Source: Candidatus Hydrogenedentota bacterium (lineage in GTDB: Bacteria; Hydrogenedentota; Hydrogenedentia; Hydrogenedentales; SLHB01). Taken from it: DNA of 64,000 nt. Positions within the stretch are counted from its first letter, which is position 1. Each line of letters opens with the position of its first letter. Both the position numbers and the translations under genes were made by a program. Where the stretch lies: NCBI GenBank assembly GCA_045863295.1, contig BTWA01000002.1, positions 1-64,000 on the forward strand, in the 5' to 3' direction. The notes beneath the pieces were generated by a model. It was not told the origin of the DNA. It did no database searches and worked only from the letters and a program-made list of their open reading frames with translations. Below, piece by piece: positions 2,553-46,157 of this stretch.

Positions 2553-4123
2553 TCCGCGTGCCCCTTCACTTCTTCGGCATCGGGAAGGACCATGGGAGCG
2601 GCCTCTACGCGCACCTGCGAAACGCGACGGCCTTCACATTCCTCCACCGTGAAGCGCACGCCACCGGATTCTATCGTATCACCGGACTCCAGGATCTTTT
2701 CCGCTTGATCCATGAGGAATCCCGCAAGGGTCTCGTGTTCATCGTCTTTCAAATCGACATGCACCAATTCGCTCACGGTTTCCAGATCGATCTGGCCGCT
2801 GACGCGATACACGCCCGGACCGACTTCGACGTACTCCGGTTCTTCCACTTCATCCTCGTCGAAAATGTCGCCAACGATAAGTTCGAGGGCGTCTTCCAAA
2901 GCGACGACGCCGGACGTGCCGCCGTATTCGTCGACAACGACGGCAAGATGGGCGCGTTTGCGCTGGGCTTCGCGGACGAATTGTTGCACGGACATCGTTC
3001 CGGGCACGAACAAAACGGGCCGCGCGAACTGTTTGATCCTGGCGTCCGTATTTCCTTGTGCGAACGCGGGAAGCAAATCTTTCAGCACGAGCAAACCGGT
3101 AATCTGATCGATGTCGTCCCGAAAGACGGGCATGCGCGAGAACTGATGCTTTCGCATTTCAGAAAGAGCATCGTCAATGGTGGCGTCTTCTTGTATGGCA
3201 ATGATGCCGGTGCGCGGGATGTAGATCTCCTTCAGCATGGCATCGCTGGATTCCAGAATTCCCTCAATCATCTGGCGCTCGTCTTCTTCGATGACACCGT
3301 GCGTTTCGCCGTCTTCCAAAACCGCCTTGAATTCATGGTCGGTGATAAAAGGCGTCACTGTTCCCGAAGTGACGCCCGTGGCGTGCAGAAGTTTGTTCGT
3401 GACCCAGATCATGCTGTCCCGCGCCGGTGCAAGGATCCAGTCCACAAGCGTCAGGGGGAAGACGCCAATACTTGCAATGAAAATATTGGTTCGTACGGCA
3501 AGCACCTTGGGAAGGATTTCGCCAAAGAGCACCAGCACAATGGAAGTGACAATGACGGCCGATACAAACGATGCGGACACCGACAAGCCGAAATAGCCGA
3601 AGACGGCCTCCACGCGAGTGCCGAGGAATACGCCAATGAGCACATTGACAATCATGTTGCCCATCAAAATAGTCGTGAGAAGCCGGCCAGGGTGGTCCAT
3701 CAAGGCGGAAATGGCCCGTTCGATGGCGCGCGAACTGGATCCCATGGCTTTCAATCGAATCTTGTGAATGGAAAAGAAGGCGGCTTCCGATCCGCTGAAG
3801 AAAGCCGAACAACCGATCAAAAAAAGTACGATGCCCATGATTCGGGGCGGAAAAAGATCGATCGGAGTTCGCTCGGCCGCGGGAATCGCCGCAGGGGCGG
3901 CTTCGACCTGAGAAACCGGGATTTCCGCATCCTGCGCGGATACGCTGCCGTCCACGGTCCGAAAGAGCGAGGATCGGTCCCACCCCGAGACGGCCATGCC
4001 CGTGCCCATGGCAATTGCCAGCAAAACGCACGCGCGCACCAGATGAATACGTATCGCGGTCCGGTCTGACCGTGTACTGCCAGCGCCATCGTCCAAAGCG
4101 AACGAAACCTCCTCAGCGCCCAT
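2549..4123 (-). CDS. CNNM/hemolysin-family membrane protein with N-terminal extension (start uncertain)
   Basis: SAFFSGSEAAFFS, FGEILPK, FSRMPV, VVDEYGGTSGVVALEDALELIVGDIFDE. ATGA overlap with the next gene. Confidence 0.9.
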   Translation of the reverse strand: MGAEEVSFALDDGAGSTRSDRTAIRIHLVRACVLLAIAMGTGMAVSGWDRSSLFRTVDGSVSAQDAEIPVSQVEAAPAAIPAAERTPIDLFPPRIMGIVLFLIGCSAFFSGSEAAFFSIHKIRLKAMGSSSRAIERAISALMDHPGRLLTTILMGNMIVNVLIGVFLGTRVEAVFGYFGLSVSASFVSAVIVTSIVLVLFGEILPKVLAVRTNIFIASIGVFPLTLVDWILAPARDSMIWVTNKLLHATGVTSGTVTPFITDHEFKAVLEDGETHGVIEEDERQMIEGILESSDAMLKEIYIPRTGIIAIQEDATIDDALSEMRKHQFSRMPVFRDDIDQITGLLVLKDLLPAFAQGNTDARIKQFARPVLFVPGTMSVQQFVREAQRKRAHLAVVVDEYGGTSGVVALEDALELIVGDIFDEDEVEEPEYVEVGPGVYRVSGQIDLETVSELVHVDLKDDEHETLAGFLMDQAEKILESGDTIESGGVRFTVEECEGRRVSQVRVEAAPMVLPDAEEVKGHAE

Positions 4124-4628
4124 GGCGCGCGCTATTTGCGCGCGCATGAGCGTGCCCTTCGGCAATCCAAGCCTCTTCCATGGGTATTTCCAAATAAGCC
4201 GCCTGCTTTTCGGTCATGGACTCGCGCTCCGCAGCCGATCCATGATCGTACCCAAGAAGATGCAGTAATCCGTGACAAAACAGAAGGCGAACTTCCGCGC
4301 GCGCCCTCGCCGGGTCGCCATTGCATCGCCGCACCACCGTGTCCAGCGAAATGACAATGTCTCCCAGCGTCCGGGCGTCCGGGGGAAGGTCCCCTCCCAT
4401 CTTGTCGTCGGGCTGGCCGAACGACAGTACGTCGGTTGGACCCCTCTTCCGGCGAAACCGCCGGTTTAAATCCGCGATAAACGCATCATCGCAAAAGAGC
4501 ACACTGACTTCCAGTGGGCCGCGGGCACGTTCACCCCGGCACACTCTCTCGGCAATGCGAGCCAGCACGTCTTGACGATAACAACCGCGATGGCCGGATT
4601 CGTTGCGCGCCTGAACGGCAATCGTCAC
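4113..4628 (-). CDS. ybeY: rRNA maturation endoribonuclease YbeY
   Basis: LNRRFR..GPTDVLSF, LGDIVIS, HGLLHLLGYDH. GTG start overlaps the upstream TGA (GTGA). Confidence 0.95.
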   Translation of the reverse strand: MTIAVQARNESGHRGCYRQDVLARIAERVCRGERARGPLEVSVLFCDDAFIADLNRRFRRKRGPTDVLSFGQPDDKMGGDLPPDARTLGDIVISLDTVVRRCNGDPARARAEVRLLFCHGLLHLLGYDHGSAAERESMTEKQAAYLEIPMEEAWIAEGHAHARANSARHGR

Positions 4629-14779: not shown

Positions 14780-16156
14780 TCAGAGCAGGTATCTTGTGAC
14801 CATACCACCCAGTGCGCATGCCGCGAGAACCTTGAACATGCCGGCGTGGTAGCGAAACGTGGCAACCATTGCTGCGACGGCCAGGAACAATGCGGCCCAA
14901 TTCACGGTGCTGAAATCAGGCACCTGCAAAGTAAGCGGGCCGAATGGCAGCTGAGTCACTTTCCCAAACACCGTGTGCAGGAAGAACCAAACGGCTAGAT
15001 TCAAGACGACTCCTACCACCGCAGCAGTTATCGCGCTCAACGAGGCATTGAGGGCTTTGTTGCCGCGCAGGACTTCGATGTAGGGAGCGCCAAGAAATAT
15101 CCATAGAAAGCATGGCGTGAACGTCACCCAAGTGGCTAGCAAACCACCCACTGTGCCGGCGAGCATTGGGTGAAGGGAGCCGGGATCGCGGAAGGCGGCC
15201 ATGAAGCCGACAAACTGAACAACCATAATGAGCGGACCTGGTGTTGTCTCCGCCATCGCGAGTCCATCGACCATTTCGCCAGGCGTTAGCCACCCATATA
15301 CGCCGACGGCCTGTTGTGTCATGTAGGCAAGAACGGAGTATGCGCCGCCGAAAGTGACGACCGCAGCTCTGCTAAAGAATGTGGCCACCAGGAAATAGAC
15401 ATCATCCTTGCCACGCGCAAGCATGAGAGCGAGGAGCGGTGCAGACCAGAGCACGCCCCATACTGCGACGACCTTGGCGGAACGCAACAGAGTTGGCACA
15501 GCGCTGCGCCCCATAAGGCTGCCGCCAAGTATGTTGTCTGGCCCGTTGGCCATGCGCGAAAAGTAGCGCTGGCCGAGGCCAAGCGCGGCCGCTGAGGCCA
15601 CGATTAAGGGAAAAGGGGTGTCGAAGAAGAAGATCGCGATGAATGCGGCGGCTGCGATGCAAACGGAAGAGCGCGATTTGAGGGTGCGCCTGCCAATGCG
15701 CAGTACGGCTTCTGCGACAATGGCGAGCACGGCGGCCTTCAGGCCAAAAAAGAAAGCTTGAACCCCCTCGATGTGTTGGGCTCCGGCATAAAGATAGCTT
15801 AGGCACAAGATGACGACGACGCCGGGTATGACGAAGAGCGTGCCCGCGACGAGACCGCCTCGCGCGCCATGAAGCAGCCAGCCGACGTAGGTGGCCAGTT
15901 GCTGGGCCTCCGGACCGGGCAGCAACATGCAATAGTTCAATGCATGCAGAAAGCGATCTTCGCTTATCCAGCGCTTTTCGTCCACCAGTATGCGATGCAT
16001 TACCGCGATTTGACCCGCTGGACCGCCAAAGCTGTTCAGGCCAATATACGCCCACGTGCGCGCCGCTTCCTGAAAGGTTGGCAGGGCCGCACTCGTTTCC
16101 AACGGGCTGGAAGTTTCTTCAGGCTTACGGTTTTCTGGTTGATTTCCCTTGGCCAC
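14780..16156 (-). CDS. chrA: Long-chain chromate efflux transporter ChrA
   Basis: SFGGPAGQIAVMH, LLPGPEAQQLA, TFGGAYSVL, AETTPGPLIMV. GTG start 1 nt after the chrB stop. Confidence 0.95.
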   Translation of the reverse strand: MAKGNQPENRKPEETSSPLETSAALPTFQEAARTWAYIGLNSFGGPAGQIAVMHRILVDEKRWISEDRFLHALNYCMLLPGPEAQQLATYVGWLLHGARGGLVAGTLFVIPGVVVILCLSYLYAGAQHIEGVQAFFFGLKAAVLAIVAEAVLRIGRRTLKSRSSVCIAAAAFIAIFFFDTPFPLIVASAAALGLGQRYFSRMANGPDNILGGSLMGRSAVPTLLRSAKVVAVWGVLWSAPLLALMLARGKDDVYFLVATFFSRAAVVTFGGAYSVLAYMTQQAVGVYGWLTPGEMVDGLAMAETTPGPLIMVVQFVGFMAAFRDPGSLHPMLAGTVGGLLATWVTFTPCFLWIFLGAPYIEVLRGNKALNASLSAITAAVVGVVLNLAVWFFLHTVFGKVTQLPFGPLTLQVPDFSTVNWAALFLAVAAMVATFRYHAGMFKVLAACALGGMVTRYLL

Positions 16157-16157
16157 G

Positions 16158-17117
16158 CTATCTTCCCTTGGTGCTAGCAATCAACTCGTCATAAAGGATG
16201 TTAAACAGTTCCACGGCTCCTGTCAGTCGATCCACGTCATTCCGGCAGGAGGAGCGAATGCTCCGCAGCACAAGCGCAATTCCCATGGCTTCTTCGCGGG
16301 CGTATTTTCCGTCTTTCATGTCGATGTCATGAACTATCTCAGCGAGTTGGGAGATCGCGGGATCGTGCAGGTGAAAGGAGTCGCACAAGACTTCAAACGT
16401 GCACTGGCTCCCTCGATGCGTGAATTCGCCTTCGTACATATCGAAGCGCAGTTCGCCGGTCCTGTGCCTATACGTTTCCACTTCGACGTATTTGAATCGG
16501 GCTTGAGGATCGACAAAACGTTTAATCAACCACGCGCTTGCCATGCGGTCCACGAAGATGTTTTTCCTTGTGACCCAGATCCCTCCGCGGGGCATCTTGC
16601 ATTGGCCGCCCGGAGACGCAGAACGCTTATTTTCCGCTGTCTTGGCTTTGAGCAAGGACTTGATGTCATCCAACAAGCTGCGTACGGTGCGGCCGCCCTT
16701 TGCGCTGAAGTAATCCCTTTCGGAGGTACGCTCCAAGTTTCTGCATAGCCGTGCAAACGCTGCCTCCAAGCGGTCTACGCGATCGGCCTTAGACTTTGTC
16801 TTGATTGCGCCAAGCAAGGTTCGAGCATCCCGTGCGATCTTCGAGTACTGTGTCTCAGCTCGCGCATTGAAAAGGCGAATAATGTCGGCATCCGTCAATC
16901 CTTCCACGAAACCTGCGTCGCATACCACACCTTCGCCGCCTTCACGCTTGATTTCATTCAACAACCACTGAAAATCTTCAATGGACTCTTCCCGGTTGGG
17001 AAGCACATACACCGTGTTCTTGATTGCCACGGCGCCGATATCGTGAAGGCGCCTGCTTATCCTTACGCGCGCATAGGCCGGTCTTGGGGGCAAATGATGG
17101 ATGAGCAATAGCCACAT
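16158..17117 (-). CDS. chrB: Chromate-responsive regulator ChrB
   Basis: WLLLIHHLP.RPAYARVRI.RRL, WVTRKNIFVDRMASAWLIKRFVD, FDM..GEFTH.G..CTFEVL, IVHDID. Confidence 0.92.
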   Translation of the reverse strand: MWLLLIHHLPPRPAYARVRISRRLHDIGAVAIKNTVYVLPNREESIEDFQWLLNEIKREGGEGVVCDAGFVEGLTDADIIRLFNARAETQYSKIARDARTLLGAIKTKSKADRVDRLEAAFARLCRNLERTSERDYFSAKGGRTVRSLLDDIKSLLKAKTAENKRSASPGGQCKMPRGGIWVTRKNIFVDRMASAWLIKRFVDPQARFKYVEVETYRHRTGELRFDMYEGEFTHRGSQCTFEVLCDSFHLHDPAISQLAEIVHDIDMKDGKYAREEAMGIALVLRSIRSSCRNDVDRLTGAVELFNILYDELIASTKGR

Positions 17118-17159
17118 ATGTTTTGCACGAGGGGCCAAAGGCGATGTATCCAGATTTAT

Positions 17160-17195
17160 GATACAATTGTATCTATATTGATGCATTATATGCAA
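17160..17195 (-). promoter_or_regulatory. Putative chrBA promoter with palindromic operator
   Basis: Minus strand TTGCAT (17195-90), 18 bp, TACAAT (17171-66). Perfect 14-bp palindrome GATACAATTGTATC (17160-17173) covers the -10. Confidence 0.6.
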
Positions 17196-17552
17196 TAACG
17201 TGTCAGTTTCCCCGATTATCACACTTGCCGGGCCTGCTTTTTCTAGAGCATTGGCGGGTTCCCGGGCCAGTTGATTCCACGAACCTGACTAAACCGGTTG
17301 AAGGAATTGTCCCAAGAGACGAGATGGAAGATCATAGAAGCCATCTATACTCCCGATCGCATACATAGAAGCGATCGGACCATGGTTTGATAACCTGATT
17401 GCGCATGGGGCGCGTCCATGAATATGGCTGTCACTCAAGAAAGCGCGCATCGGTTGCAACGGTCTTGCCTTGGGGGTATGCTGACGGGGTTTTTTGGGCG
17501 AAAGTGCAATTCATGTCCCCGACGGGGAATTTTCACGAGGGAGTTATCGACG

Positions 17553-24445: not shown

Positions 24446-26641
24446 TTAAGGTCCTTCCACATTCCTTAATCGCTCCGCCAGCCGTGTGTTTCTTCGTGCA
24501 ACGTCGGTGTTGCGGACAGCCATACGGAGCGCTTTGGGATCCCCAATCAGGACGACGATCCGGCTGGCGCGGGTGATGGCGGTGTAGAGGACGTTGCGCT
24601 GGAGCATGAGAAAATGCTGCGTGCTGAGCGGGATGATAACCGCGGGGTATTCGCTGCCTTGGGACTTGTGGACCGTGCAAGCATAGGCAAGCGTGAGTTC
24701 ATCGAGGTCATCGAAGGGATACAGAACTTCCCGGTCGTCGAACTGAATATGGGCTTCTTTCGTGGGTTCATCCACGAGGGACACAATGCCCACATCGCCG
24801 TTGTAGACGTCGAGTTCATAGTTGTTGCGCGTCTGCATGACCTTGTCGCCAAGGCCGAAAAGGCGGCGCCCGATGGGTTGCAGGTTGGGGTTGAGCACGC
24901 GTTGCATGGTTTCGTTGAGTTGGCCTACACCGGCGTCGCCGCGGTGCATGGGGGAGAGCACCTGAATGTCGCGCACCGGATCGAGATTGAATCGTTTGGG
25001 CAAGCGTTCGGTCGCGATTTCAACGACGGTGTCGAGAAGCTTTTTGGGATCGGTTCGTTCAATAAAGAAAAAGTCGCGGTCATTGAATTCAGGTTCCAGG
25101 CCGCGGTTAATGCGGTGTGCGTTCGAGATAATGCCACTTTCTCCCGCCTGCCGGAATACCGTCTGCAATCGCACCACGGGCACGATGCCGGAAGCGATTA
25201 CGTCGAGCAGAACGTTCCCAGGCCCCACCGAAGGCAACTGATCGACATCGCCCACAAGGACGAGCCGGCACGCTGGCGGCAGTGCGCGCAGAAGCGCGTG
25301 CATAAGCGCGACGTCGATCATCGAACATTCGTCCAGGACCACGAGATCGGTGTTGAGCGGGTTTCCTTCGTGGCGTGTGAAGCCGCCTTGTTTAGGGCTG
25401 AATTCGAGCAAGCGGTGTATCGTCTTCGCTTCACGATCCGTGGCTTCACTCATGCGCCGCGCGGCACGGCCGGTGGGCGCGGCCAACATGGCGCTGATGT
25501 TCTTCTTGTCGAAAATGGCAAGCAGGCTGCGCAACACCGTGGTCTTGCCCGTGCCGGGCCCACCGGTAATGACCATGATCTTGGCTGAGATAGCGGTGCG
25601 CACGGCGTCTCGCTGTTCGGGAGAGAGTTCGATGGAGAATTGCTGCTCGACCCATTTGAGCGCATTGTCCAATTGAATTGGCACCGCCTCCATGGGAACG
25701 CTCAATACGCACTTCAATCCTTTTGCAACACCCACTTCGGCGGTATGCAACGCGGGAAGAAAGTAGTCGTCCTGTTCGCGTATGAGCAGCGCTTGCAGTT
25801 CGGCTTCGGGGATCGCCTCTTCTACCCTCAATGCCTCCACTTCGAGCAGGTCAGCGGCCTTCTTGATCAGGTCCGTGCGGCTGGCATAGACATTTCCCTC
25901 GCTTGCGGCCTGCTGCATGACGTAGTGCAAACCGGCTGCCGCGCGTTTGGGCGAGTCCTTGGCAATGCCAAGTCGTTCGGCAATGGCATCCGCGCTGCGG
26001 AATGCGATGCCCGCAATGTCTTGCGCGAGCCGGTAGGGGTTGTCGCGGAGTACGGCCATCGCGGCGTCGCCGTACCGTTTGTAAATGCGCACGGCTTGCG
26101 CCACGCCAATGCCATGGCCTTGCAAAAATAGCATGATGGACTGAATCGTACGTTGCGCGTCCCACGCTTTGCGGATCTGATCAGCTCGTTTGCGGCCAAT
26201 GCCTTCGACTGTGCGAAGGCGGTGCGGTTCTTCCTCGATGACACGAAGCGTTTCCGTGCCGAACGACTTCACCAAACGTTTGGCATACGTGGGGCCGATT
26301 CCTTCGATGAGACCGGATCCCAGATATTTCTCAATGGCGTCGGCCGTCGCAGGCACGAGCGTCTGGTATTTTTCCACCTTCAGTTGGCGCCCAAACTTGG
26401 CGTCGTCCACCCACCGGCCCCATACGCGCACCGTCTCGCCAGGGGAGGCCGCAACCACGCCGACAATGGTGGTGAGATTCGGTTTTTGATCTTCCTGCAA
26501 CCGCGCCACGATAAAGCCGCTGTCCGGACTTTCGTAGACGATGCGTTCAATGGTGCCTTCAATACAAGCGTTGGTCGCTTCAGAAGGAGGCGTAACCTCG
26601 CCGATGGTGGTTTGGCGATGCGTCGGATTGTCGCCGGTCAT
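24446..26641 (-). CDS. recD2: ATP-dependent RecD-like helicase RecD2
   Basis: HhH region YLGSGLIEGIGP, ITGGPGTGKTT, APTGRAARR, DECSMID, GDVDQLPSVGPG, YACTVHKSQGSEY. Confidence 0.96.
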   Translation of the reverse strand: MTGDNPTHRQTTIGEVTPPSEATNACIEGTIERIVYESPDSGFIVARLQEDQKPNLTTIVGVVAASPGETVRVWGRWVDDAKFGRQLKVEKYQTLVPATADAIEKYLGSGLIEGIGPTYAKRLVKSFGTETLRVIEEEPHRLRTVEGIGRKRADQIRKAWDAQRTIQSIMLFLQGHGIGVAQAVRIYKRYGDAAMAVLRDNPYRLAQDIAGIAFRSADAIAERLGIAKDSPKRAAAGLHYVMQQAASEGNVYASRTDLIKKAADLLEVEALRVEEAIPEAELQALLIREQDDYFLPALHTAEVGVAKGLKCVLSVPMEAVPIQLDNALKWVEQQFSIELSPEQRDAVRTAISAKIMVITGGPGTGKTTVLRSLLAIFDKKNISAMLAAPTGRAARRMSEATDREAKTIHRLLEFSPKQGGFTRHEGNPLNTDLVVLDECSMIDVALMHALLRALPPACRLVLVGDVDQLPSVGPGNVLLDVIASGIVPVVRLQTVFRQAGESGIISNAHRINRGLEPEFNDRDFFFIERTDPKKLLDTVVEIATERLPKRFNLDPVRDIQVLSPMHRGDAGVGQLNETMQRVLNPNLQPIGRRLFGLGDKVMQTRNNYELDVYNGDVGIVSLVDEPTKEAHIQFDDREVLYPFDDLDELTLAYACTVHKSQGSEYPAVIIPLSTQHFLMLQRNVLYTAITRASRIVVLIGDPKALRMAVRNTDVARRNTRLAERLRNVEGP

Positions 26642-26744
26642 TGGGGCGAGACTTTCGAAACAAGTAGGTTGGGAGGATGAAAGATTCGCTGCTCGACAAT
26701 CCGCTGCGGGTGCAAGCCACACCGCCTGCCACTCCGCTTCATTA

Positions 26745-26800
26745 CCCTCGTTCCCAAGCTCCCGCTTGGGAATGCACTCCCGAAAAGCTCTGCTTTGAAC
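26745..26800 (+). repeat. Left REP-like palindromic repeat flanking RAYT #1
   Basis: CCCTCGTTCCCAAGCTCCCGCTTGGGAATGCACTCCCGAAAAGCTCTGCTTTGAAC; inverted copy at 27384-27439 (4 mismatches in 56). Confidence 0.9.
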
Positions 26801-26841
26801 GCGCGTGCAAAACGCCCCTGCCCTTCGCTATCCTCCTCCCC

Positions 26842-27378
26842 ATGCGATCCCGATACCGATTCCACGAACCGGACGCCGCGTACTTCCTCACCTGCACCAT
26901 CGTCGAGTGGATTTCCGTCTTCCAATCCCGCCCGTACTTCGACTCGATTGCCACATCCCTTGCCTTTTGCCGACGGCAGAAGGGACTGCGCCTGTATGCC
27001 TATGTCATCATGGAAAACCACCTGCACCTCATCGCATCGGCCCCCGATCTGAGCGCCGTTGTTCAGTCCTTCAAGTCGTTTACGGCGCGCGAAATTGTCC
27101 GAATTGCGGCATCGGGCGGCCAGACTCCGCTTCTCAGCCAATTCACGGCCTACAAGAAGCGGTACAAGATGGAGAGTGCACATCAGGTCTGGCAGGAAGG
27201 TACGCACCCGCAACGCATCCAGGGCGATGAAATGCTTAACCAGAAGGTTGACTACGTCCATAACAACCCCGTGCGGCGGGGTTACGTCGATCTTCCCGAG
27301 CATTGGCGGTATTCTTCGGCGCGGAACTATTATCTGGACGACCACTCGGTGATGGAGATCGATTCGCTGCATACTTGA
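26842..27378 (+). mobile_element. REP-associated tyrosine transposase (RAYT, Y1/HUH) #1
   Basis: YFLTCTIVEW, YVIMENHLHLI, FKSFTAR, VWQEG.HP, YVHNNPVRRG, WRYSSA. Confidence 0.92.
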
Positions 27379-27383
27379 CGGGG

Positions 27384-27439
27384 GTTCAAAGCAAAGCTTT
27401 TCGGGAGCGCGTTCCCAAGCTGGAGCTTGGGAACGAGGG
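27384..27439 (-). repeat. Right REP-like palindromic repeat flanking RAYT #1
   Basis: Reverse complement of 26745-26800; internal hairpin GTTCCCAAGCT-gg-AGCTTGGGAAC. Confidence 0.9.
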
Positions 27440-27590
27440 ATGAGAGGGATTGAGGGTTTCACCCTCCTTTTGTCCCCCTCCCTTGAGAGAAGGGAGTTAT
27501 GTGTTGGCGCATATATTGGATTATCGCCGTTCACGCGAAGTTCCAGACAATTCCCCAATCAACGGGTTCAAAGGCTTATGTGGAAATGGG

Positions 27591-28583: not shown

Positions 28584-28807
28584 TGATGACCCCCCTTTGA
28601 CTTCTTTCAAAATCGTTGTAAACGACATGGCCAGTGTTTCAATAGTATAAAGTAAAGGTGCGTCCGGTACTCAATGCGCCGGACGGAAAGCCGGGAAAAA
28701 TTTCTTGAGATTCCCTGTGTGTCAAGTGTTCGAGAGTTAAAGCCAGTCCGCAAAATTGCCGATAGACAGATACGGGAATTTCCGTTGAACCGAGGAGATT
28801 GGGCGCG

Positions 28808-31201
28808 ATGTCCCTTAAGGGCAAGCGGTTATTGCATTTAGGCGGGGCACTGTTTCAGACGCCCGCATTGGCGTGTGCCAAACGGCTGGGGTGCGAGGTC
28901 ATCCTGGTAGACTACAACCCGGACGTGCCCGGGCGTGTACACGCGGATGTATTCGAACAGGTGTCGACACGCGATCGGGAGGCAATTCTAGCCGTGGCGC
29001 AACGGCACCGTGTCGATGGCATCATGACCTACGCGTCCGATTCCTCGGTGGCCAGCGTGGCATTTGTTGCGCAACAATTGGGCCTGCCCGGCAACCCGCC
29101 CGAAGCGGCCGAAGCCATTCGCCGGAAGGACCTCTTTCGCGAGTTTCAACGGGCGCACGGATTGCCGCATCCCCCATTCTTTTCGGCATCCTCGGTGGAG
29201 GAGGCGCTTTCGAACATCTCCGGGTTGACGTTTCCCATCGTGGTGAAGCCGGTGGATTCCGCGGGCACCAAGGGGCAATCCGTAATTCACGGCCTGGGCG
29301 AGGTGGAGCGCGCGCTGGACGTGGCCCTCGCGAATTCGACTACGAAACGCGCCGTGTTCGAGAACTTCGTCCACGCGGACATCATGGAATTGGACGGCGA
29401 CGTATGGTTCGAGTCTGGACGGTTGGCCTTCCGGCATTATGGGCACAATCACTTTTTGAAAGATCGAATCTCGAACGTGCCCAGCGGCGAGATTTTTCCG
29501 GGATTCTTTGACGAGGCGTTGGCCGAGCATATTGACCGGCAATTTGAGGCAATCATTCGCGGGCTGGGGTTACGTGCGGGCTGCATGAACTTCGATGCGC
29601 TGGCGCGCAACGGCGTTGTGTACATCCTGGACGTTGGCCTGCGCAACGGCGGCAACTTCGTGCCCGATGCAATCCAATTGTCCACGGGATTTAACCTGAC
29701 CGAGGCGGCGGTGCACGGCGCGCTGGGCATACCTTATCCCGATACGCGCTTTTCCGTGGCCGATGCAAAGCCGGTGGCGACATATCTGATAGGTTCGCGC
29801 TTTCCGGGGCGCTTTGAAGGCGTGGAATTCAGCGCGGAGATTCAACCGCATCTGGCGGAACTGCGGCTTTTCCTCGATCAAGGATCCGCTATTTCGGCCT
29901 ATACGCGCGCGGACATGGCGGCGGGCATCGCCTTCTTTCAATTTCCGGATATGAACACCTTGCGGGACAAGATGGAGCATATCGAAGACCTCGTGAAGCT
30001 CCGCGTGGTTCCCATGCGCCTTGCTCCGCGCAACGGGCGCTCCAAACGCGGCGAAATTACGACGGGGGAATATAAAGAATTCCCGGAATTGGTTTCGCCC
30101 TACTTGCGGGACAAGCTGCGCGAAGCGGAAGCGAGCAACGACCAGACCGTCATGCGCGTGTTGTCGCGGCAGTACATCGAAACGGCGGGCGAGGCCAGCA
30201 TCCGTGCCGACGAAGGCCTGAAGCATTACGAAGCGGGCGAAAAGGTGTATTGGGAAAACGAGCCGCTGGCCGGCGTTGAGCGGCTGTACCGCCGCGTGAT
30301 TCTGTTCGAGCCTTTGTACCAATGCATTGCCCATTGCCGGTATTGCCTGCGGCGCAATTACGAGCCATTCCACCAGAGCAAGGACGATATTCAACGCATC
30401 GCCCGATACGTGGGACAAGCACCCGGCCACGAGGAATTGCGGGAGATTCTGATTACCGGAGGCGATCCGTTTCTCGTGCCGCAGAAAGTGGGAGATTTCC
30501 TCGACGCCGTCGCCGAGCACGCGCCGCAAATACGCATTGCGCGCGTGGCCACCCGCGTGCCGATACATGAACCTGACCGGGTGAACGACAAGATTCTGGA
30601 CGTGCTGTCGAAGCGGTATCCGTTCAGGATTGAAGTGGCCACCCAAATCAATCATGCGGCGGAGCTGTTTCCGGAAGTGGAGGCGGCATACCGGCGCGTG
30701 CGCGATATAGCGCCGATTTACAATCAGACCGTCTTGTTGCGGGGTGTAAACGACACGCTGGACGAACTCGTCGAATTGTGCGACCGCATACGGTCCCTGG
30801 CAATCGAGAATCACTATCTGTTTCATTGCGTGCCCATTGGGGGGCTGAACAGCCTGCGCACGCCGCTCATGCGGAGCATTGATTTGGCGCGGCAACTCAG
30901 CGCGAGCGGACGCATCTCTGGCCGGGCCAAGCCGCAATTTTGCCTGATGACGGCCATCGGAAAGATCACGCCGTACGAAGGCACAATCGTCGATTACCGG
31001 GACAACAAATTCCTGCTCCGCTCGAACTACGACTATCAAGAGCGCCTGGAATGGAATCCGTCGTGGAAACTGCCCGCAAACGGCGTCGTGGACGAAGACG
31101 GACGTTTGTGCGTGTGGTATGAGGATGCGGCGGACGATGACGCGATTCCGGCAACGGTCGCGGGCCAAAGAAGCGACGTCGAAAAACAGCAGGTGCGCTG
31201 A
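28808..31201 (+). CDS. Fusion protein: N-terminal ATP-grasp ligase + C-terminal KamA-family radical SAM 2,3-aminomutase
   Basis: ATP-grasp: LGG..FQ, VDGI, RKDLFREF, FPIVVKPVDSAGTKG, NFD, LDVGLRNGG. KamA-like: CIAHCRYCLRR, ITGGDPF, TRVP, NHAAEL, NQTVLLRGVND, GK. One uninterrupted frame; GAGGAG RBS. Confidence 0.9.
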   Translation: MSLKGKRLLHLGGALFQTPALACAKRLGCEVILVDYNPDVPGRVHADVFEQVSTRDREAILAVAQRHRVDGIMTYASDSSVASVAFVAQQLGLPGNPPEAAEAIRRKDLFREFQRAHGLPHPPFFSASSVEEALSNISGLTFPIVVKPVDSAGTKGQSVIHGLGEVERALDVALANSTTKRAVFENFVHADIMELDGDVWFESGRLAFRHYGHNHFLKDRISNVPSGEIFPGFFDEALAEHIDRQFEAIIRGLGLRAGCMNFDALARNGVVYILDVGLRNGGNFVPDAIQLSTGFNLTEAAVHGALGIPYPDTRFSVADAKPVATYLIGSRFPGRFEGVEFSAEIQPHLAELRLFLDQGSAISAYTRADMAAGIAFFQFPDMNTLRDKMEHIEDLVKLRVVPMRLAPRNGRSKRGEITTGEYKEFPELVSPYLRDKLREAEASNDQTVMRVLSRQYIETAGEASIRADEGLKHYEAGEKVYWENEPLAGVERLYRRVILFEPLYQCIAHCRYCLRRNYEPFHQSKDDIQRIARYVGQAPGHEELREILITGGDPFLVPQKVGDFLDAVAEHAPQIRIARVATRVPIHEPDRVNDKILDVLSKRYPFRIEVATQINHAAELFPEVEAAYRRVRDIAPIYNQTVLLRGVNDTLDELVELCDRIRSLAIENHYLFHCVPIGGLNSLRTPLMRSIDLARQLSASGRISGRAKPQFCLMTAIGKITPYEGTIVDYRDNKFLLRSNYDYQERLEWNPSWKLPANGVVDEDGRLCVWYEDAADDDAIPATVAGQRSDVEKQQVR

Positions 31202-31315
31202 AGGATCGCTTGGAATCCAGAGGCAACACCTTCAGCCCCCGCGGTTGGCCGCTTCTATTCGCGGGAGGCGATTTTGTAGAGTGAACCCCGATGTCGAGAA
31301 TTGGGGGATTCTGCC

Positions 31316-40955: not shown

Positions 40956-40979
40956 GAAGCGGCAAGATGCCGCTTCTAC
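40956..40979 (-). repeat. GTAG-type REP palindrome
   Basis: Minus strand GTAG-AAGCGGCA-tct-TGCCGCTT; degenerate second copy near 40838-40853. Confidence 0.55.
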
Positions 40980-41032
40980 TTCCATGCAATTCCGCTCTAT
41001 TATGGTTTCTTTCCTCGCAAGGGCGGGTTTCG

Positions 41033-42850
41033 ATGGTCTTCTTTTCACTTCTATTCGCTTCGTGCCTGCTGGGTCTGCCGGTGAAACACTTGTTTCGCAG
41101 CGCGCCCCGGGCAGATCGCGTTCTATTCCGGCTGGCTTGCGGTTGGATGCTTTGTGGCGTTGTCGTAATGGCGGTGGGCAGTGTTCGGTTGGAAGCGGCG
41201 GTGTGGTTGGTATACGCGCTGGCTGCAGCACAGACGATGCTCTGGATCCCAGGGACGCGGATGGCGTTCAAAGCCCGTGCATTGTCGTCATGGCGGACAC
41301 TATCCTGGGAGGCCGCGATTGCATGGGCAGTCTTGCTGTTCGTGCTCGGCACATGGGTTGTCCTGTTGCGTGCCCCGGTGACCGGATGGGATGCCGCCGT
41401 GGCGCATTTGGCGTTGGCGAAAGACTATATTCGCGAAGGCCGCATCGGCCTTATGCCGGGCAACAGCTACTCCGCCTTTCCGCAACTCATGCAGGCCCTC
41501 TACACCATCGCACTGTTTCACGGCGGCGAATGGTCCGCGTCCATGGTGAACTGGATCTTCGGCGCGTTGGCGTGCCTGGCGGCCTGTGTCCTGGCAAGGC
41601 GCATGGCCGGCGAAGTCGCCGGATACGTTGCAGCCGCGGCAACGGCGGCTATGCCCGTGTTTGTGAGCCAACTATCGGCGCCAGGCGTTGATCTGCCGTT
41701 CGCGGCTGTGGTCTTGTGCGGATTGGCCGCGTGGATCTGCGCAGACCAGGAGAATCGTCCGGAGTGGCTGGCGGTATCCGGCGCGTTGCTGGGCTCGTCC
41801 TTCGGTATCCGTCACACGGGACTGTACGCGGCCGCGCTAATGGTCATCGTAGTTCTGCTGGCACGATCTCCTGGTCGCATCCGATGGACCGTAATCGTTG
41901 TATTGGCTGTTGGGGCAGGGGCATTACCGTGGCTGGTGCGTTCGTTTTGGCTAACCGGCAATCCGGTATATCCATTTCTGGCGTCGTGGATGCCATCCGA
42001 GGGATTGCCTTCCGACGAACTGGCGCGCGTGGGTGCGCATGAGTCTGTGCGTGGCGGAAATCCGCTTGCGGCGCTCGTCTTTTATGGCAACGTGATTCTG
42101 TTTCCCCACCACTACGACGGTTGGATGCAATCGCCTGGCATGGTGCCGCTGGTGTTGGGCCTGCCCGGTCTGCTCTTGGCGGGCCGGTATGGCCGTTGGA
42201 TGGGCGCATTCAGTATTGCCGGAGTCACGGGACTGTTCTTCTTCAGGCAGTTCGCCCGGTATTTGTTCCCGTTCTATTTGCCCATGATGCCCGTGGGCGG
42301 CGCCGTTGTCTCTCACAAGGGCCGCTTTAGGCCATGGGCGCTCCTGCTGATTGGCGTGTCGTATGTCGTGGGCGTAACCATGACCATGGCGTTTGCGTCG
42401 GTGAAGGCCCCAGTGGCGTGCGGCTGGATTTCGAAACAGGGGTACCTCCAGTCGCGCGTGGAACGATACGCGGCGTTTCAATGGGTAAATGAGAATCTGC
42501 CCCATGACGCCATGGTGTTGATGATCGATCCGAGGGCATATTATGTGGACCGTCGCACAGTCAGCGATTTCGAAATGATAAAGGCGCTCGTACCGCTCGA
42601 CGATCGCAGCAGGCTGGACTGGCTGCGCGACAAAGGCATCACCCATGTGCTCCACGCGCGCCGGTATGCGGAAGAGTCTCCAGGATTTCGCGAGACCGGC
42701 GTACTGGGTGTAATCGAGAAATGGCGCGGAGATTCGAGTCATTTCGAAATCGTTTATCGCGAGAATGTGCCCACTACCAGGAACAGCGGCAGCGACGTGG
42801 TGGAGATATATCGAGTGAAAGGACTGGGGGAGAGCTCCGGTGTCCATTAA
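41033..42850 (+). CDS. GT-C (ArnT/PMT_2-like) integral membrane glycosyltransferase
   Basis: Many TMs; [13 protein letters not shown]...[12 protein letters not shown]-terminal soluble domain. Start uncertain. Confidence 0.75.
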
Positions 42851-44405
42851 GCGGACCTTAGCGCGCAACACCGCGTTCAACGCCGCCGGGCGTCTATGGG
42901 ATGCCGCCCTGACCCTGGTGTTGACTCCGTACATCGTGAACCGGATCGGGTGGGAGGCCTGGGGCCTGTGGGCCTTGATCGGATCGCTCACCGGATACGT
43001 AGGTCTGCTCGACTTGGGAATGGGGAGCGGCCTGTCGAAATTCATCGCCGAACACGCGGCGAAGGGCGATCGCAAGGCGCTGTCGTCGGTGGTGAGTACC
43101 GCGTTCTTTTTTTACGCAGGGTTTGGCGCGCTGCTCGTGGCCGCTGGTTGGCCGCTGTGCGGCGCGGCTATAGAAGCGTTCGCCGCATGGCGCGGCGGAG
43201 AACCGGCTGTCGCCGCGGATGCCGTGTTCCTCGCACGCGGTTCCATTCTCCTTTACGCGGCATCCATGGCCATCGTGCCGTTTATGGCGGTGCAGACCGG
43301 TTTACAACGAATGGGCGTGGCCAACGCCGTAAGCGGTGCGGCATCTATCATCAAAGCAGCCGCGATTGTGACCCTTTTGGAACTGCATACGGGTGTGCGC
43401 GGGCTGATCTACGCCAACAGCGCGTCAACCTTGTTCGTGGCACTGGCGGGCGTGGTGGCGGCCTATGCGCTGGCGCCGGGTCTGCGCGTTTCACCCTCGG
43501 GCATCTCGCGCGAAACGTTTAGTACGCTGTTTGCCTTTGGCTGGCGCGCACAAGTGGCAAGGTTGTGCAATCTGGTGATGCTGGAAACCGATCGCGTCAT
43601 CGTGGGGTTTGTTTTTGGTTTGACCGCCGCGGGCCTATACCGGGCCGGAGAGGAAATCGCGAACAAATTGCGGCAGGTTCCCGTATTGGTGTACAGCGCG
43701 ATTGTACCGGCCGCATCCGATCTCGATGCGCGCGGAGACGTCGAACGGTTGAGAGGACTGTACCTGCGAGTGTCAAAATACGGCGCTGCCGTGGCAGTGC
43801 CCATGTTGCTGTTTGGCGGCGCCTCTGCCGGAATGATTATGCGCGTCTGGTTTGGCCAGGAGGAAGGCCTCGACACGGCGGCATGGGTGCTTCAAATTAT
43901 CGCGATAGGTCACTTGGTCAACGTTCTTGCGGGGGCCGGTGTCAGCATCGCGCTGGGCAAGGGGCGCGTGGATGTGCAGATGATACCCGGACTGATTTCC
44001 GCGGGCGCCAACATCGTCTTGACCGTCGTCTTTGTCCAGGTAGTCGGCTTTTACGGTGTACCGGTGGCCACAACGATGGCCATGTTCCTGGGATGGGCAT
44101 GGCTGCTTCGCGCGATGGGATCCATCGTTGGGTTGAGAGGAACGCGAACCGTGCGGAAATCGCTCTTGTGGCCGCTCGTGGCGGCGTTGCCCGGTATAGC
44201 CGTGTGTGCGGCGGCCGATATCTACACCTCGGGTTGGTCGGGACGCCTGCTGAACGGCGGCGCCCTCCTGGTCTGCCTGTCCACAGCCGGCGTTATTTAT
44301 GCAAGTCTGCTACAGGCAGCGCCGTTCTGGGATGCAACCGATCGCGGCCTTTTTGGAAGCCTGCGCGGAACCGGAAGTGAAAACAAAATGAGCGGATTAA
44401 ACTAA
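42840..44405 (+). CDS. Wzx-type oligosaccharide flippase
   Basis: LARNTAFN, TPYIV.RIG...WG, LLDLGMG, TDRVIVG...G....GLY; about 14 TMs. Confidence 0.88.
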   Translation: MSIKRTLARNTAFNAAGRLWDAALTLVLTPYIVNRIGWEAWGLWALIGSLTGYVGLLDLGMGSGLSKFIAEHAAKGDRKALSSVVSTAFFFYAGFGALLVAAGWPLCGAAIEAFAAWRGGEPAVAADAVFLARGSILLYAASMAIVPFMAVQTGLQRMGVANAVSGAASIIKAAAIVTLLELHTGVRGLIYANSASTLFVALAGVVAAYALAPGLRVSPSGISRETFSTLFAFGWRAQVARLCNLVMLETDRVIVGFVFGLTAAGLYRAGEEIANKLRQVPVLVYSAIVPAASDLDARGDVERLRGLYLRVSKYGAAVAVPMLLFGGASAGMIMRVWFGQEEGLDTAAWVLQIIAIGHLVNVLAGAGVSIALGKGRVDVQMIPGLISAGANIVLTVVFVQVVGFYGVPVATTMAMFLGWAWLLRAMGSIVGLRGTRTVRKSLLWPLVAALPGIAVCAAADIYTSGWSGRLLNGGALLVCLSTAGVIYASLLQAAPFWDATDRGLFGSLRGTGSENKMSGLN

Positions 44406-44412
44406 CAGCGTC

Positions 44413-45201
44413 ATGAAAGATTTTGTGCCTTGGCTAATAGGACCGTACGCGAGTCAACGCAAGTTTCGGCAATTCTGCGAAATCGGCGCGCGCACCGGCG
44501 CGACCAGCGCTCGTTTGCTTGAATTGGATGGCGCGACCTTATCGATCATCGATCCCTGCGAGGACGACGACCTCATTACCCGCTTCGAGGGCGATTCGCG
44601 GGTGAAAGTGATTAAGGGCTTCAGTCTCGACGTGTTGCCCGTGCTCACTGACACATTTGATGCTTTTCTGATCGACGGCGATCACAATTGGTACACGGTG
44701 TACCACGAACTAGCCGTCATCCACGATCGCTCCTTGCTGAAGCCCGGCGGGGTGATCTTTCTGCACGATACCGCATGGCCGTACGGCCGGCGCGACATGT
44801 ACTTCGACCCCGGCCGCATACCCAAGGAATACGTCCAGCCCCATGAAAGAAGGGGAATTGTGAGGGGACAACCGGATCTGGCCGACAGCGGCGTAAACGC
44901 GCATCACTACAATGCCCTGCATGAAGGCGGACCACGCAACGGCGTATTGACGGCGGTGGAAGATTTCGCCCGGGAGCATAAGGGCGGCTACATCCGCTAT
45001 TCACTCGACGTGCAGTTCGGCATCACGATGCTTCACCGGTGCGGACGGCCCGAAGAAGACTGGATGTTCGAGCGCTTCACGCGTTCCATATCCCGCCGCA
45101 TTCGCATCGGAGCATGGAAACAACGAATGGATCGGATCGTACCCGGCGCCGTGCCTCTATACCGCGCAGTGCGACGCCTGTTTCGGCGGAACTCCCCATG
45201 A
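44413..45201 (+). CDS. Class I SAM methyltransferase (Methyltransf_24-like)
   Basis: EIGARTG, IDP, IDGDHNWYTV, GGVIFLHD..WPYGRRD, NGVLTAVEDF. Confidence 0.85.
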   Translation: MKDFVPWLIGPYASQRKFRQFCEIGARTGATSARLLELDGATLSIIDPCEDDDLITRFEGDSRVKVIKGFSLDVLPVLTDTFDAFLIDGDHNWYTVYHELAVIHDRSLLKPGGVIFLHDTAWPYGRRDMYFDPGRIPKEYVQPHERRGIVRGQPDLADSGVNAHHYNALHEGGPRNGVLTAVEDFAREHKGGYIRYSLDVQFGITMLHRCGRPEEDWMFERFTRSISRRIRIGAWKQRMDRIVPGAVPLYRAVRRLFRRNSP

Positions 45202-46157
45202 GCCAGGCCGTGACGGTTATCATTCCAACGTGGAACCACGGCGACCTGCTGAATGCGTGTCTGAATTCGCTGGCAGATCAGATTTTTCAGAAATTGGACA
45301 TTATTGTCGTCGATGACGCGTCGTCCGACGGCACAGTGAATGCCGCCGTGTCCGGTCGCCAAAACGTTCGGATTCTGAGGAATGAGACCAACCGCGGTTT
45401 CGCCGCATCAGCGAACCGGGGACTGCGTGAAGCAACGTCGGATTGGGTTATGCTTCTGAACAATGACGTGACCCTCGCCCCGGACGCCATTGATCGGCTT
45501 GTAAATGCGGTGGAGTCTGAACAGGCGGACATGGTGCAACCGCTGATTCTATGGCGAGACGCTCCGGATCGCATCTATTCCGCGGGTGACCGGCAGCGGC
45601 TCAACGGCCGTCCGGAAGGTATCGGTTTTCGCGATCAGCGGGAAGGCTTCCGGTTTGACGAACCTGTGTTTGGAGTGACAGCGGCGGCGGCACTGTACCG
45701 GCGGGAGATATTCGACCGGGTAGGGTACCTGGACGAGACGTTCCTGGCATATTTCGAAGACAGCGATCTGAATTTCAGGGCGAGGCTCGCGGGGTTCCAA
45801 GCGGCGTGTGTTCCAGAGGCGGTAGCATGGCACGTTGGCTCGGCGAGTCAGTCCGGCAAAACCTGGTGGCGATCACGCCAGTGCTTTCGCAATCACGCCC
45901 TGCTCGTGGTCAAAAATATGCCGTGGCCGCTGCTGATTCGGTATGCGCCATCCATACTGCGAGAGCGGCTCCACCAGATATCCATGCTGATCGGGTCTGC
46001 CCGCGCCGAATTCGGGCTGGCGAAAGCGCTGGCAATTGCCGCTCTGGCAATAGGCTCTACATGGCGGGCACTGTTGCCTTCCATGATGAAGCGGTTCAAT
46101 ATTCAGCGGAATCGCGCGGTTGACCTGCAGACATTGCGCGACCTGTTGCGCGAATAG
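45198..46157 (+). CDS. GT2 glycosyltransferase
   Basis: VIIPTWN, VVDDASSDG, NRGFA...NRG, LLNND, YFEDSDL.FRA. Confidence 0.93.
   Translation: MSQAVTVIIPTWNHGDLLNACLNSLADQIFQKLDIIVVDDASSDGTVNAAVSGRQNVRILRNETNRGFAASANRGLREATSDWVMLLNNDVTLAPDAIDRLVNAVESEQADMVQPLILWRDAPDRIYSAGDRQRLNGRPEGIGFRDQREGFRFDEPVFGVTAAAALYRREIFDRVGYLDETFLAYFEDSDLNFRARLAGFQAACVPEAVAWHVGSASQSGKTWWRSRQCFRNHALLVVKNMPWPLLIRYAPSILRERLHQISMLIGSARAEFGLAKALAIAALAIGSTWRALLPSMMKRFNIQRNRAVDLQTLRDLLRE

Follow-up and report, generated by a model that had tools for sequence, protein, structure and literature searches.

Two described systems make an unusual amino acid with a radical S-adenosylmethionine (SAM) mutase and attach it with a partner ligase: EpmB/EpmA, which carries out the β-lysylation of elongation factor P (EF-P), and PylB/PylC of pyrrolysine synthesis. 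Neither acts on a sugar: the target of the first is a protein, that of the second a free amino acid. Here we describe a single gene in a 64,000-nucleotide stretch of DNA (the window; contig BTWA01000002.1, positions 1 to 64,000) from a Candidatus Hydrogenedentota bacterium, in which an ATP-grasp ligase and a KamA-family radical SAM/pyridoxal 5'-phosphate (PLP) enzyme are fused into one protein of 797 residues. PylC is likewise an ATP-grasp enzyme and matches the fusion weakly (25.7 bits against a cut-off of 248), while EpmA is an aminoacyl-tRNA-synthetase-like ligase, unlike the ATP-grasp half of the fusion; to our knowledge, PylB does not belong to the KamA family. The initial annotation of the gene had drawn an analogy with EpmB and with BlsG. 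The make-and-attach logic does recur, but the analogy is loose: the two Asp residues of lysine 2,3-aminomutase (LAM) are Val and Met in the fusion, and the models for enzymes of known substrate score far below their cut-offs.

A third described system resembles the fusion in its place in the genome. Many surface glycans and flagellins of bacteria and archaea are capped with nonulosonic acids (NulOs), whose N-acyl groups determine charge as well as recognition by phages and by the immune system. For the NulO pseudaminic acid (Pse), the N-acyl group is added by PseH, the UDP-4-amino-4,6-dideoxy-N-acetyl-β-L-altrosamine N-acetyltransferase. In the Pse loci L088 and L006, where no other acyltransferase is seen, the gene of the fusion is flanked by pseG and pseI. 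PseH is an acetyl-CoA-dependent GNAT enzyme, whereas the fusion uses an ATP-grasp domain, and the two are not homologous. Among ATP-grasp enzymes, PurD and PurT are able to acylate a sugar-borne amine.

We propose, at a probability of about 0.5, that the fusion is a bifunctional glycan-decoration enzyme that would place a β-amino acid on an amino sugar of the Pse pathway. The KamA-type domain, with a [4Fe-4S] cluster, SAM and PLP, would move the amino group of a free neutral L-α-amino acid from C2 to C3 and so yield a β-amino acid. The ATP-grasp domain would convert the carboxylate of this β-amino acid to an acyl phosphate, and would then form an amide with the amino group of a nucleotide-linked amino sugar. 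The likeliest acceptor would be the PseC product, UDP-4-amino-4,6-dideoxy-β-L-AltNAc, in which case the fusion would stand in for PseH and give pseudaminic acid with a β-aminoacyl group on N7. This replacement of PseH is the more tentative part, with the odds somewhat against it. The aminomutase reaction, the order of the steps, the acceptor and the PseH replacement are all proposed from sequence and gene context.

Architecture of the fused protein and its catalytic residues

We found that the gene is one continuous open reading frame (ORF), as the initial annotation had stated. The ORF caller placed the frame at 28799..31201 (+) with a TTG start (800 aa), and the ATG at 28808 gives 797 aa. 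Because a Shine-Dalgarno-like GAGGAG lies 10 nt 5' of ATG 28808, this ATG is the likelier start. The features of the gene are as follows; conservation is given for the 59 aligned fused sequences, residue numbers count from ATG 28808, and pLDDT is the predicted local distance difference test of the AlphaFold2 model.

28792..28797, + strand: Shine-Dalgarno-like GAGGAG, read directly
28808..31201, + strand: whole fused gene, 797 codons plus stop, a single open frame without an internal stop
28808..30013, + strand: ATP-grasp carboxylate-amine ligase domain, residues 1–402 (Pfam, NCBIfam, PDB sequence search, Foldseek)
30014..30076, + strand: basic disordered linker, residues 403–423 (pLDDT <50 at residues 407–420)
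30077..31138, + strand: KamA-family radical SAM/PLP domain, residues 424–777 (NCBIfam, PDB sequence search, Foldseek)
30323..30346, + strand: CxxxCxxC cluster motif CIAHCRYC, residues 506–513 (C506, C510 and C513), invariant in 59/59
30350..30352, + strand: R515, aligned with the Arg two residues after the third Cys of LAM (2A5H), invariant in 59/59
30830..30832, + strand: V675, at the position of LAM Asp293 (gapless alignment YLFHCV/YIYQCD), invariant in 59/59
30947..30949, + strand: M714, at the position of LAM Asp330 (gapless strand PQFCLM/PTFVVD), at least 90% conserved
30962..30964, + strand: K719, candidate PLP-binding lysine (GK, residues 718–719), invariant in 59/59
31139..31198, + strand: acidic disordered C-terminal tail, residues 778–797, not conserved (pLDDT <50; homologue alignments end near residue 775)

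The AlphaFold2 model, built from 59 aligned sequences, has a mean pLDDT of 87.8 and falls below 50 only at residues 407–420 and 778–797, so that the short basic linker noted between the halves is indeed present and is disordered in the model. The linker ends where the match to stand-alone KamA-like relatives begins (residue ~424); these relatives (356–381 aa) span exactly the KamA-type part at 40–49% identity. A word-indexed protein search returned 101 proteins at E ≤ 0.001, with 60 (P0001–P0060) at E ≤ 1e-194. The fused architecture recurs in 58 other full-length homologues from many phyla (753–999 aa, 95–99% coverage, 40–74% identity), and P0054 is a truncated form of 521 aa. The fused homologues are named in their sources only as 'lysine 2,3-aminomutase', 'ATP-grasp domain-containing', '4Fe-4S cluster-binding' or 'hypothetical'. 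Four clusters in the ESM Atlas (52, 65, 147 and 202 members, all with automatic names) have the same architecture, and sludge metagenome contigs from other studies also carry the fused gene. At the junction of the two halves (~29990–30080), where a stop or a frameshift would have betrayed an artefact, there is neither: in an independent sludge study, one contig (X3 record 12, 29702–30106) crosses the region with 0 differences and no indel. The X-series comparison sequences are contigs, and the gene parts left uncovered in X2, X3 and X6 carry no meaning. The junction-spanning contig and the 58 fused homologues together exclude a frameshift or a chimera. One further contig (X17, 262 nt, 30032–30293), from a library recorded as transcriptomic RNA-Seq, is an exact match that is indistinguishable from carried-over DNA.

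The N-terminal half has a three-domain ATP-grasp fold with conserved ATP/Mg-binding residues and belongs to the branch that resembles L-amino-acid ligases and PurT. ATPgrasp_N of Pfam matches at 31.1 bits (cut-off 27), the ATP-grasp core model stays below its cut-off (21.9 vs 27), and ATP-grasp models of the PurT/CPS type in NCBIfam match residues 6–353. In the PDB sequence search the L-amino-acid ligase 3VOT matched residues 24–366 (E 9e-14), and Foldseek returned 4DIM, 3VOT, 4WD3 (RizA) and 1KJ8 (PurT) at E 1e-27 to 1e-23 with target template-modelling (TM) scores of 0.77–0.82. All motifs quoted in the initial annotation are present in the translation at the positions given there, including the cluster motif; in this half they are IVVKPVDSAGTKG (residues 144–156), NFD (residues 261–263) and LRNGG (residues 278–282). 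Residues K147, E194-L195-D196-G197-D198, N261-F262-D263, R279, G281 and G282 are invariant in 59/59 fused sequences, and we take them to have catalytic roles. The domain matches and these signature residues agree with the description of the first ~400 aa as a complete ATP-grasp ligase.

The L-amino-acid ligases (BL00235, 3VOT; RizA, 4WD3; BacD/YwfE, 3VMM) and the PurT/PurD-type enzymes thus share with the fusion a three-domain ATP-grasp fold (target TM ~0.8), and a LAL_C2 domain is present in its close relatives. In contrast, sequence identity to them is 16–20%, the fusion occurs in the context of glycan synthesis and not of peptide antibiotics or purines, and it is attached to an enzyme that would supply its acyl substrate.

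The C-terminal half, ~370 aa that had been read as a KamA-family enzyme, is one by sequence, by fold and by its invariant motifs. LAM from Clostridium subterminale (KamA, 2A5H) matches residues 485–739 in sequence (E 1.6e-29) and the half as a whole in its partial TIM-barrel radical SAM fold (Foldseek, E 5e-20), and six KamA-family models of NCBIfam match residues 483–743 (E 1e-35 to 5e-32). Pfam gave Fer4_12 at 23.7 bits (cut-off 22) and Radical_SAM slightly below its cut-off (28.7 vs 29.5). Like LAM and the rest of the KamA family (AblA, EpmB, arginine and glutamate 2,3-aminomutases), the fusion has the CxxxCxxC motif, the Arg two residues after the third Cys, GGDP (G551-G552-D553-P554, invariant in 59/59) and a lysine at the PLP position; NQTVLLRGVND spans residues 639–649. 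The GK of K719 is one residue off the GGGGK of 2A5H in the HMMER alignment, where the loop is 2 residues shorter. The fusion differs from LAM in its shorter N-terminal part, in the absence of the Cys of GVNDC, in the attached ligase and in the Val and Met found in place of two Asp. All six NCBIfam models score far below their cut-offs (111–123 bits vs 199–650): TIGR00238, for the KamA family as a whole, reaches 119.8 bits vs a curated 199.2, AblA 123 vs 525, EpmB 119.5 vs 369, arginine 2,3-aminomutase (BlsG type) 112.4 vs 600 and glutamate 2,3-aminomutase 111 vs 650. The C-terminal half is a divergent KamA-family clade outside the curated model.

The substrate is probably a neutral amino acid, and not Lys, Arg, ornithine or Glu, as judged from the residues that line up with those of LAM. 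D293 and D330 of LAM presumably hold the ε-ammonium group of lysine; since these positions are V675 and M714 in the fusion, Lys, Arg or ornithine are unlikely substrates. Across the locus-protein rows of at least 36% identity, position 675 is V or I (once C), and the whole clade has M or L at position 714. The 13 distant KamA-family rows of this alignment serve as an internal control: 7 have D/D and 4 more have E/A. We take the Arg after the third cluster Cys (R134 of LAM) to bind the substrate carboxylate and LAM K337 to form the PLP aldimine. Because the signature residues are invariant across 59 sequences, both halves look active, and each is catalytically plausible.

It could also be that the C-terminal half is not a 2,3-aminomutase of free amino acids: its radical SAM/PLP chemistry may be of another kind, or the ATP-grasp domain may first attach an α-amino acid to the sugar, with isomerisation of the aminoacyl group coming second. 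The low scores against all six models fit this idea, as do the part before the cluster, which is shorter than in 2A5H (the match begins at LAM residue 104), and the Thr that replaces the Cys of GVNDC. However, R515, GGDP and the GK lysine do not vary among the fused homologues, which fits a PLP aldimine with a bound carboxylate if the roles presumed above hold, and the stand-alone forms described below pair with an adenylating ligase, which requires a free carboxylate. We regard this alternative as very unlikely.

Neighbourhoods of relatives and the pseudaminic acid pathway

An alignment-based scan with one genome per species gave 78 loci: 8 with the fused gene, 3 with the halves as separate neighbouring genes (split loci), 54 with a stand-alone KamA-like gene of the clade to which the fusion belongs and 13 with a distant KamA-family gene. 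A further 5 fused loci and 1 split locus were found by a scan of metagenomes, which brings the totals to 13 fused and 4 split. Single-protein scans of the genome and metagenome contigs found no relatives, and it was the alignment-based scans of both that did. Neighbours were counted by six-frame tblastn. A NeuB-family gene lies directly downstream of the fusion in 6 of the 13 fused loci (L002, L005, L006, L007, L085 and L088), and 3 of the 13 are too short to reveal a neighbour. With G113, the closest relative, included and our own locus not counted, 11 fused loci are informative; pseI comes right after the fusion in 7 of them and is its commonest immediate neighbour. Three of the six NeuB-family neighbours were scored with NCBIfam and are PseI (522, 514 and 499 bits vs a cut-off of 340); the same Pse loci hold PseB (542 vs 408), PseC (533 vs 423.5) and PseG (206 vs 153.6). 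The gene order is cytidylyltransferase, PseG, fusion, PseI in L088; PseG-like, fusion, PseI in L006; and PseB, PseC, cytidylyltransferase, TIM-barrel protein, fusion, PseI in L005. Each of the three closest relatives (74, 63 and 59% identity) has a Pse context, and the fused loci without pseI are other glycan loci.

Two features of single fused loci are recorded here in their own right. The TIM-barrel protein is xylose-isomerase-like (AP_endonuc_2) and lies directly upstream of the fusion at L005:7034–7822, with a 4-nt overlap, and at L007:7233–7988; the genome that contains the window has no orthologue of it at E ≤ 1e-15. In a planctomycete metagenome-assembled genome (MAG; L001:3894–5274), a pair of genes for a HisH-like amidotransferase and a HisF-like cyclase comes after the fusion, together with capsule-export genes.

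The stand-alone relatives are also associated with NulO genes. NulO genes occur in 22 of their 54 loci, a PaaK-like ligase in 27 and an LpxD-like transferase in 24, and none of the 13 distant KamA-family control loci has any of the three. A cassette of a KamA-like protein, an LpxD-like hexapeptide N-acyltransferase and a PaaK-like adenylating ligase is often found in NulO clusters (L009–L066; for example L061:7060–7965 and L027:1908–3227). This split cassette has the same KamA clade as the fusion (40–49% identity), the same V/I and M/L residues and NulO neighbourhoods, and differs from it in that attachment is by the adenylating enzyme and the hexapeptide transferase, not by an ATP-grasp domain. 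Other combinations of domains were seen as well: P0107 joins an LpxD-like N-acyltransferase to a KamA-like domain, P0219 a Wzx-like flippase to an ATP-grasp domain, P0193 an ATP-grasp domain to a GNAT domain and P0137 an ATP-grasp domain to a methyltransferase, and in P0058 a formyltransferase-like domain precedes the whole fusion. Two Streptomyces loci (L031:7866–11599 and L010:7977–11590) have a KamA-like gene, a PGM1-like ATP-grasp peptide ligase and a major facilitator superfamily (MFS) transporter in a row, possibly a small-molecule β-aminoacyl pathway of the same KamA clade. Across genomes, this one KamA clade is paired with three different carboxylate-amine ligating devices, and in that sense the make-then-attach logic recurs.

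We built a phylogeny from 65 KamA domains, after 3 fragments had been dropped; all 9 fused domains group in a single clade with SH-aLRT 100, which sits inside the diversity of the NulO-associated stand-alone forms. The row nearest to our query comes from a Nitrospiraceae MAG and not from a planctomycete. The tree fits a single fusion event that may have been followed by horizontal spread across phyla.

In the genome that contains the window, the fusion occurs once and nothing else matches the KamA family; genes of the Pse pathway are present there in scattered positions. PseI is on contig 34 (444 bits vs 340), PseB and PseC are side by side at C2:310–312 kb (480 vs 408 and 449 vs 423.5), and a PseG-like gene (132 vs 153.6, below cut-off) is beside a cytidylyltransferase gene at C2:200–202 kb. 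On the proposed reading, the orphan look of the fused gene is deceptive. No PseH above cut-off was found in this genome (best 40.6 bits vs 93.1), and one of 5 other fusion-carrying genomes has one. In a sample of 135 genomes from the phylum, related genomes among which are not independent, the fused form is present in 2 (our genome and G113), a stand-alone KamA-clade gene in 3 and a NulO synthase in 15; all 5 KamA-clade carriers are among those 15, and in 4 of the 5 the NulO synthase adjoins the KamA-clade gene. G113 belongs to the same family and its fusion is 74% identical to ours; there the fusion is at C302:893–3244 and PseI at 3352–4332, so that pseI starts 108 nt after the fusion. Linkage to pseI and co-occurrence with a NulO synthase were thus observed across relatives, and linkage is absent in the window.

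These neighbourhoods bear on two claims of the initial annotation. That a β-amino acid is made and then ligated remains a plausible course, with the signature residues of both halves invariant, but the idea of a stand-alone system is not supported: orthologues sit in glycan loci, most informative ones have pseI directly downstream, and our genome holds scattered Pse genes. Of the four acceptors that had been listed (small molecule, osmolyte, glycan or protein), the evidence favours a glycan.

Surroundings in the window and alternative targets

The divergent region upstream of the fusion holds a 205-aa ORF without a family, an IS200-like transposase and a RecD2 helicase. Downstream, an NCS2-type permease begins 100 nt after the fusion and is followed by a DUF7133/HEAT/cytochrome c protein. 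The earlier remark that no other biosynthetic genes are adjacent is true for the window, which also contains no NulO genes. The permease was considered as a partner of the fusion and rejected; its place beside the fusion is not conserved, and no NCBIfam model matches it. Fusion and permease are separated by a terminator-like hairpin (31250–31270), such sites being no commoner here than in shuffled sequence; the counts of the whole promoter and terminator scan did not exceed those of shuffles.

The IS200-like Y1 transposase ORF (26677–27378, +; Pfam Y1_Tnp, E 2.5e-6) is found 1.4 kb before the fusion, and a longer ORF on the opposite strand (26638–27558) overlaps it. A mobile element could have to do with the separation of the fusion from pseI, which are adjacent in the closest relative. 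The only glycan genes of the window are 10 kb downstream (40967–46157, +) and encode a PMT_2-like membrane protein, a MOP-type flippase and a family 2 glycosyltransferase (GT2). The PMT_2-like gene matches the LIC_10190 family at 47.6 bits, below cut-off, and a PMT_2 gene is also present in fused locus L024. PSCyt1/PSCyt2/PSD1 and DUF1501 genes in the window mark a planctomycete-type genome, and a chromate resistance pair (ChrA transporter and ChrB, 14780–17222, –) is unrelated to the fusion.

Several observations weigh against a role for the fusion in Pse synthesis. No glycan gene adjoins it in the window, where its neighbours are the 205-aa ORF and the permease, and its link to the Pse genes of its own genome would come from the homology of neighbours elsewhere and not from position. 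The absence of PseH is soft: our genome has six weaker GNAT matches, and the other carriers are MAGs. In addition, G003 (L007) has PseH alongside the fusion. Among solved structures, the ATP-grasp enzymes nearest to the fusion make dipeptides from free amino acids, and the roles given to R134, D293, D330 and K337 of LAM are presumed ones. Finally, an ArnC/PgfS-like GT2 gene (139–179 bits, below cut-off), and not a Pse gene, adjoins the fusions of L003, L024 and L086 and the separate genes of 4/4 split loci; therefore the acceptor may differ or be broader.

The last observation leads to an alternative in which the chemistry is the same and the glycan target is another one: a different amino sugar, such as an undecaprenyl-phosphate-linked 4-amino sugar as in the Arn pathway, or a sugar carboxylate (uronic acid or NulO) that is amidated by the amine of the β-amino acid. 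Besides the ArnC/PgfS-like neighbours, L024 has a DegT aminotransferase, a PMT_2 (ArnT-like) gene and a UDP-sugar dehydrogenase, P0058 has its extra formyltransferase-like domain, and the window has its own PMT_2-like, flippase and GT2 genes, although this GT2 is weakly ArnC-like (29.8 bits). The frequency of pseI as the immediate neighbour and the Pse contexts of all three closest relatives argue against it, and we consider a different glycan target unlikely.

A second alternative returns to a stand-alone small-molecule system, in which a free β-aminoacyl dipeptide or amide (an osmolyte, signal or antibiotic) would be made and the downstream permease would move the substrate or product. The view from the window agrees with this, with no adjoining glycan genes and the permease 100 nt away, and so do the fold, which is nearest to the dipeptide-forming L-amino-acid ligases 3VOT, RizA and BacD, and the Streptomyces loci L010 and L031 with their KamA-clade gene, PGM1-like ATP-grasp ligase and MFS transporter. 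However, no Xan_ur_permease family gene was found among the scanned neighbours of the other fused or adjacent loci, and the closest relative has pseI in that place. The hairpin before the permease also counts against a shared role, at the chance frequency given above. In the tree, the fused proteins are a single lineage within NulO-associated forms, and every carrier in the phylum sample has a NulO synthase. Taken together, these data make a small-molecule system quite unlikely.

Significance for nonulosonic acid glycans and the KamA family

Both enzyme families are known; what is new is the clade, the likely substrate class, the architecture and the proposed glycan role. A literature search, in a corpus thin in subscription journals, found no paper that describes an ATP-grasp/KamA fusion, in agreement with the earlier statement that no characterised one is known, and none that links an aminomutase to NulO synthesis. 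The accessible parts of the NulO survey papers make no mention of aminoacyl or β-amino modification. The architecture of the fusion, the conservation of its catalytic motifs, its neighbourhoods, its co-occurrence with pseI and the loss of the two Asp positions are direct observations. The fullest form of the proposal, in which a natural radical SAM 2,3-aminomutase of neutral amino acids and an ATP-grasp replacement of PseH would together give a zwitterionic β-aminoacyl-pseudaminic acid and would have spread horizontally over at least 8 phyla, is doubtful as a whole.

If glycan decoration by the fusion is correct, the β-aminoacyl group would add a free amine and cancel the negative charge of the sugar, akin to an acetamidino group, and β-aminoacyl-pseudaminic acid would be a class of NulO decoration so far unreported. 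Untargeted CMP-NulO surveys of sludge and environmental bacteria would then be predicted to contain its signal. Neutral amino acids would be a new substrate class for the KamA family, and ATP-grasp ligases would gain a role as N-acylases of nucleotide sugars. The enzyme could serve to produce β-amino acids and modified pseudaminic acids, and a function would be explained for a gene that is now annotated as 'lysine 2,3-aminomutase' or 'hypothetical'.

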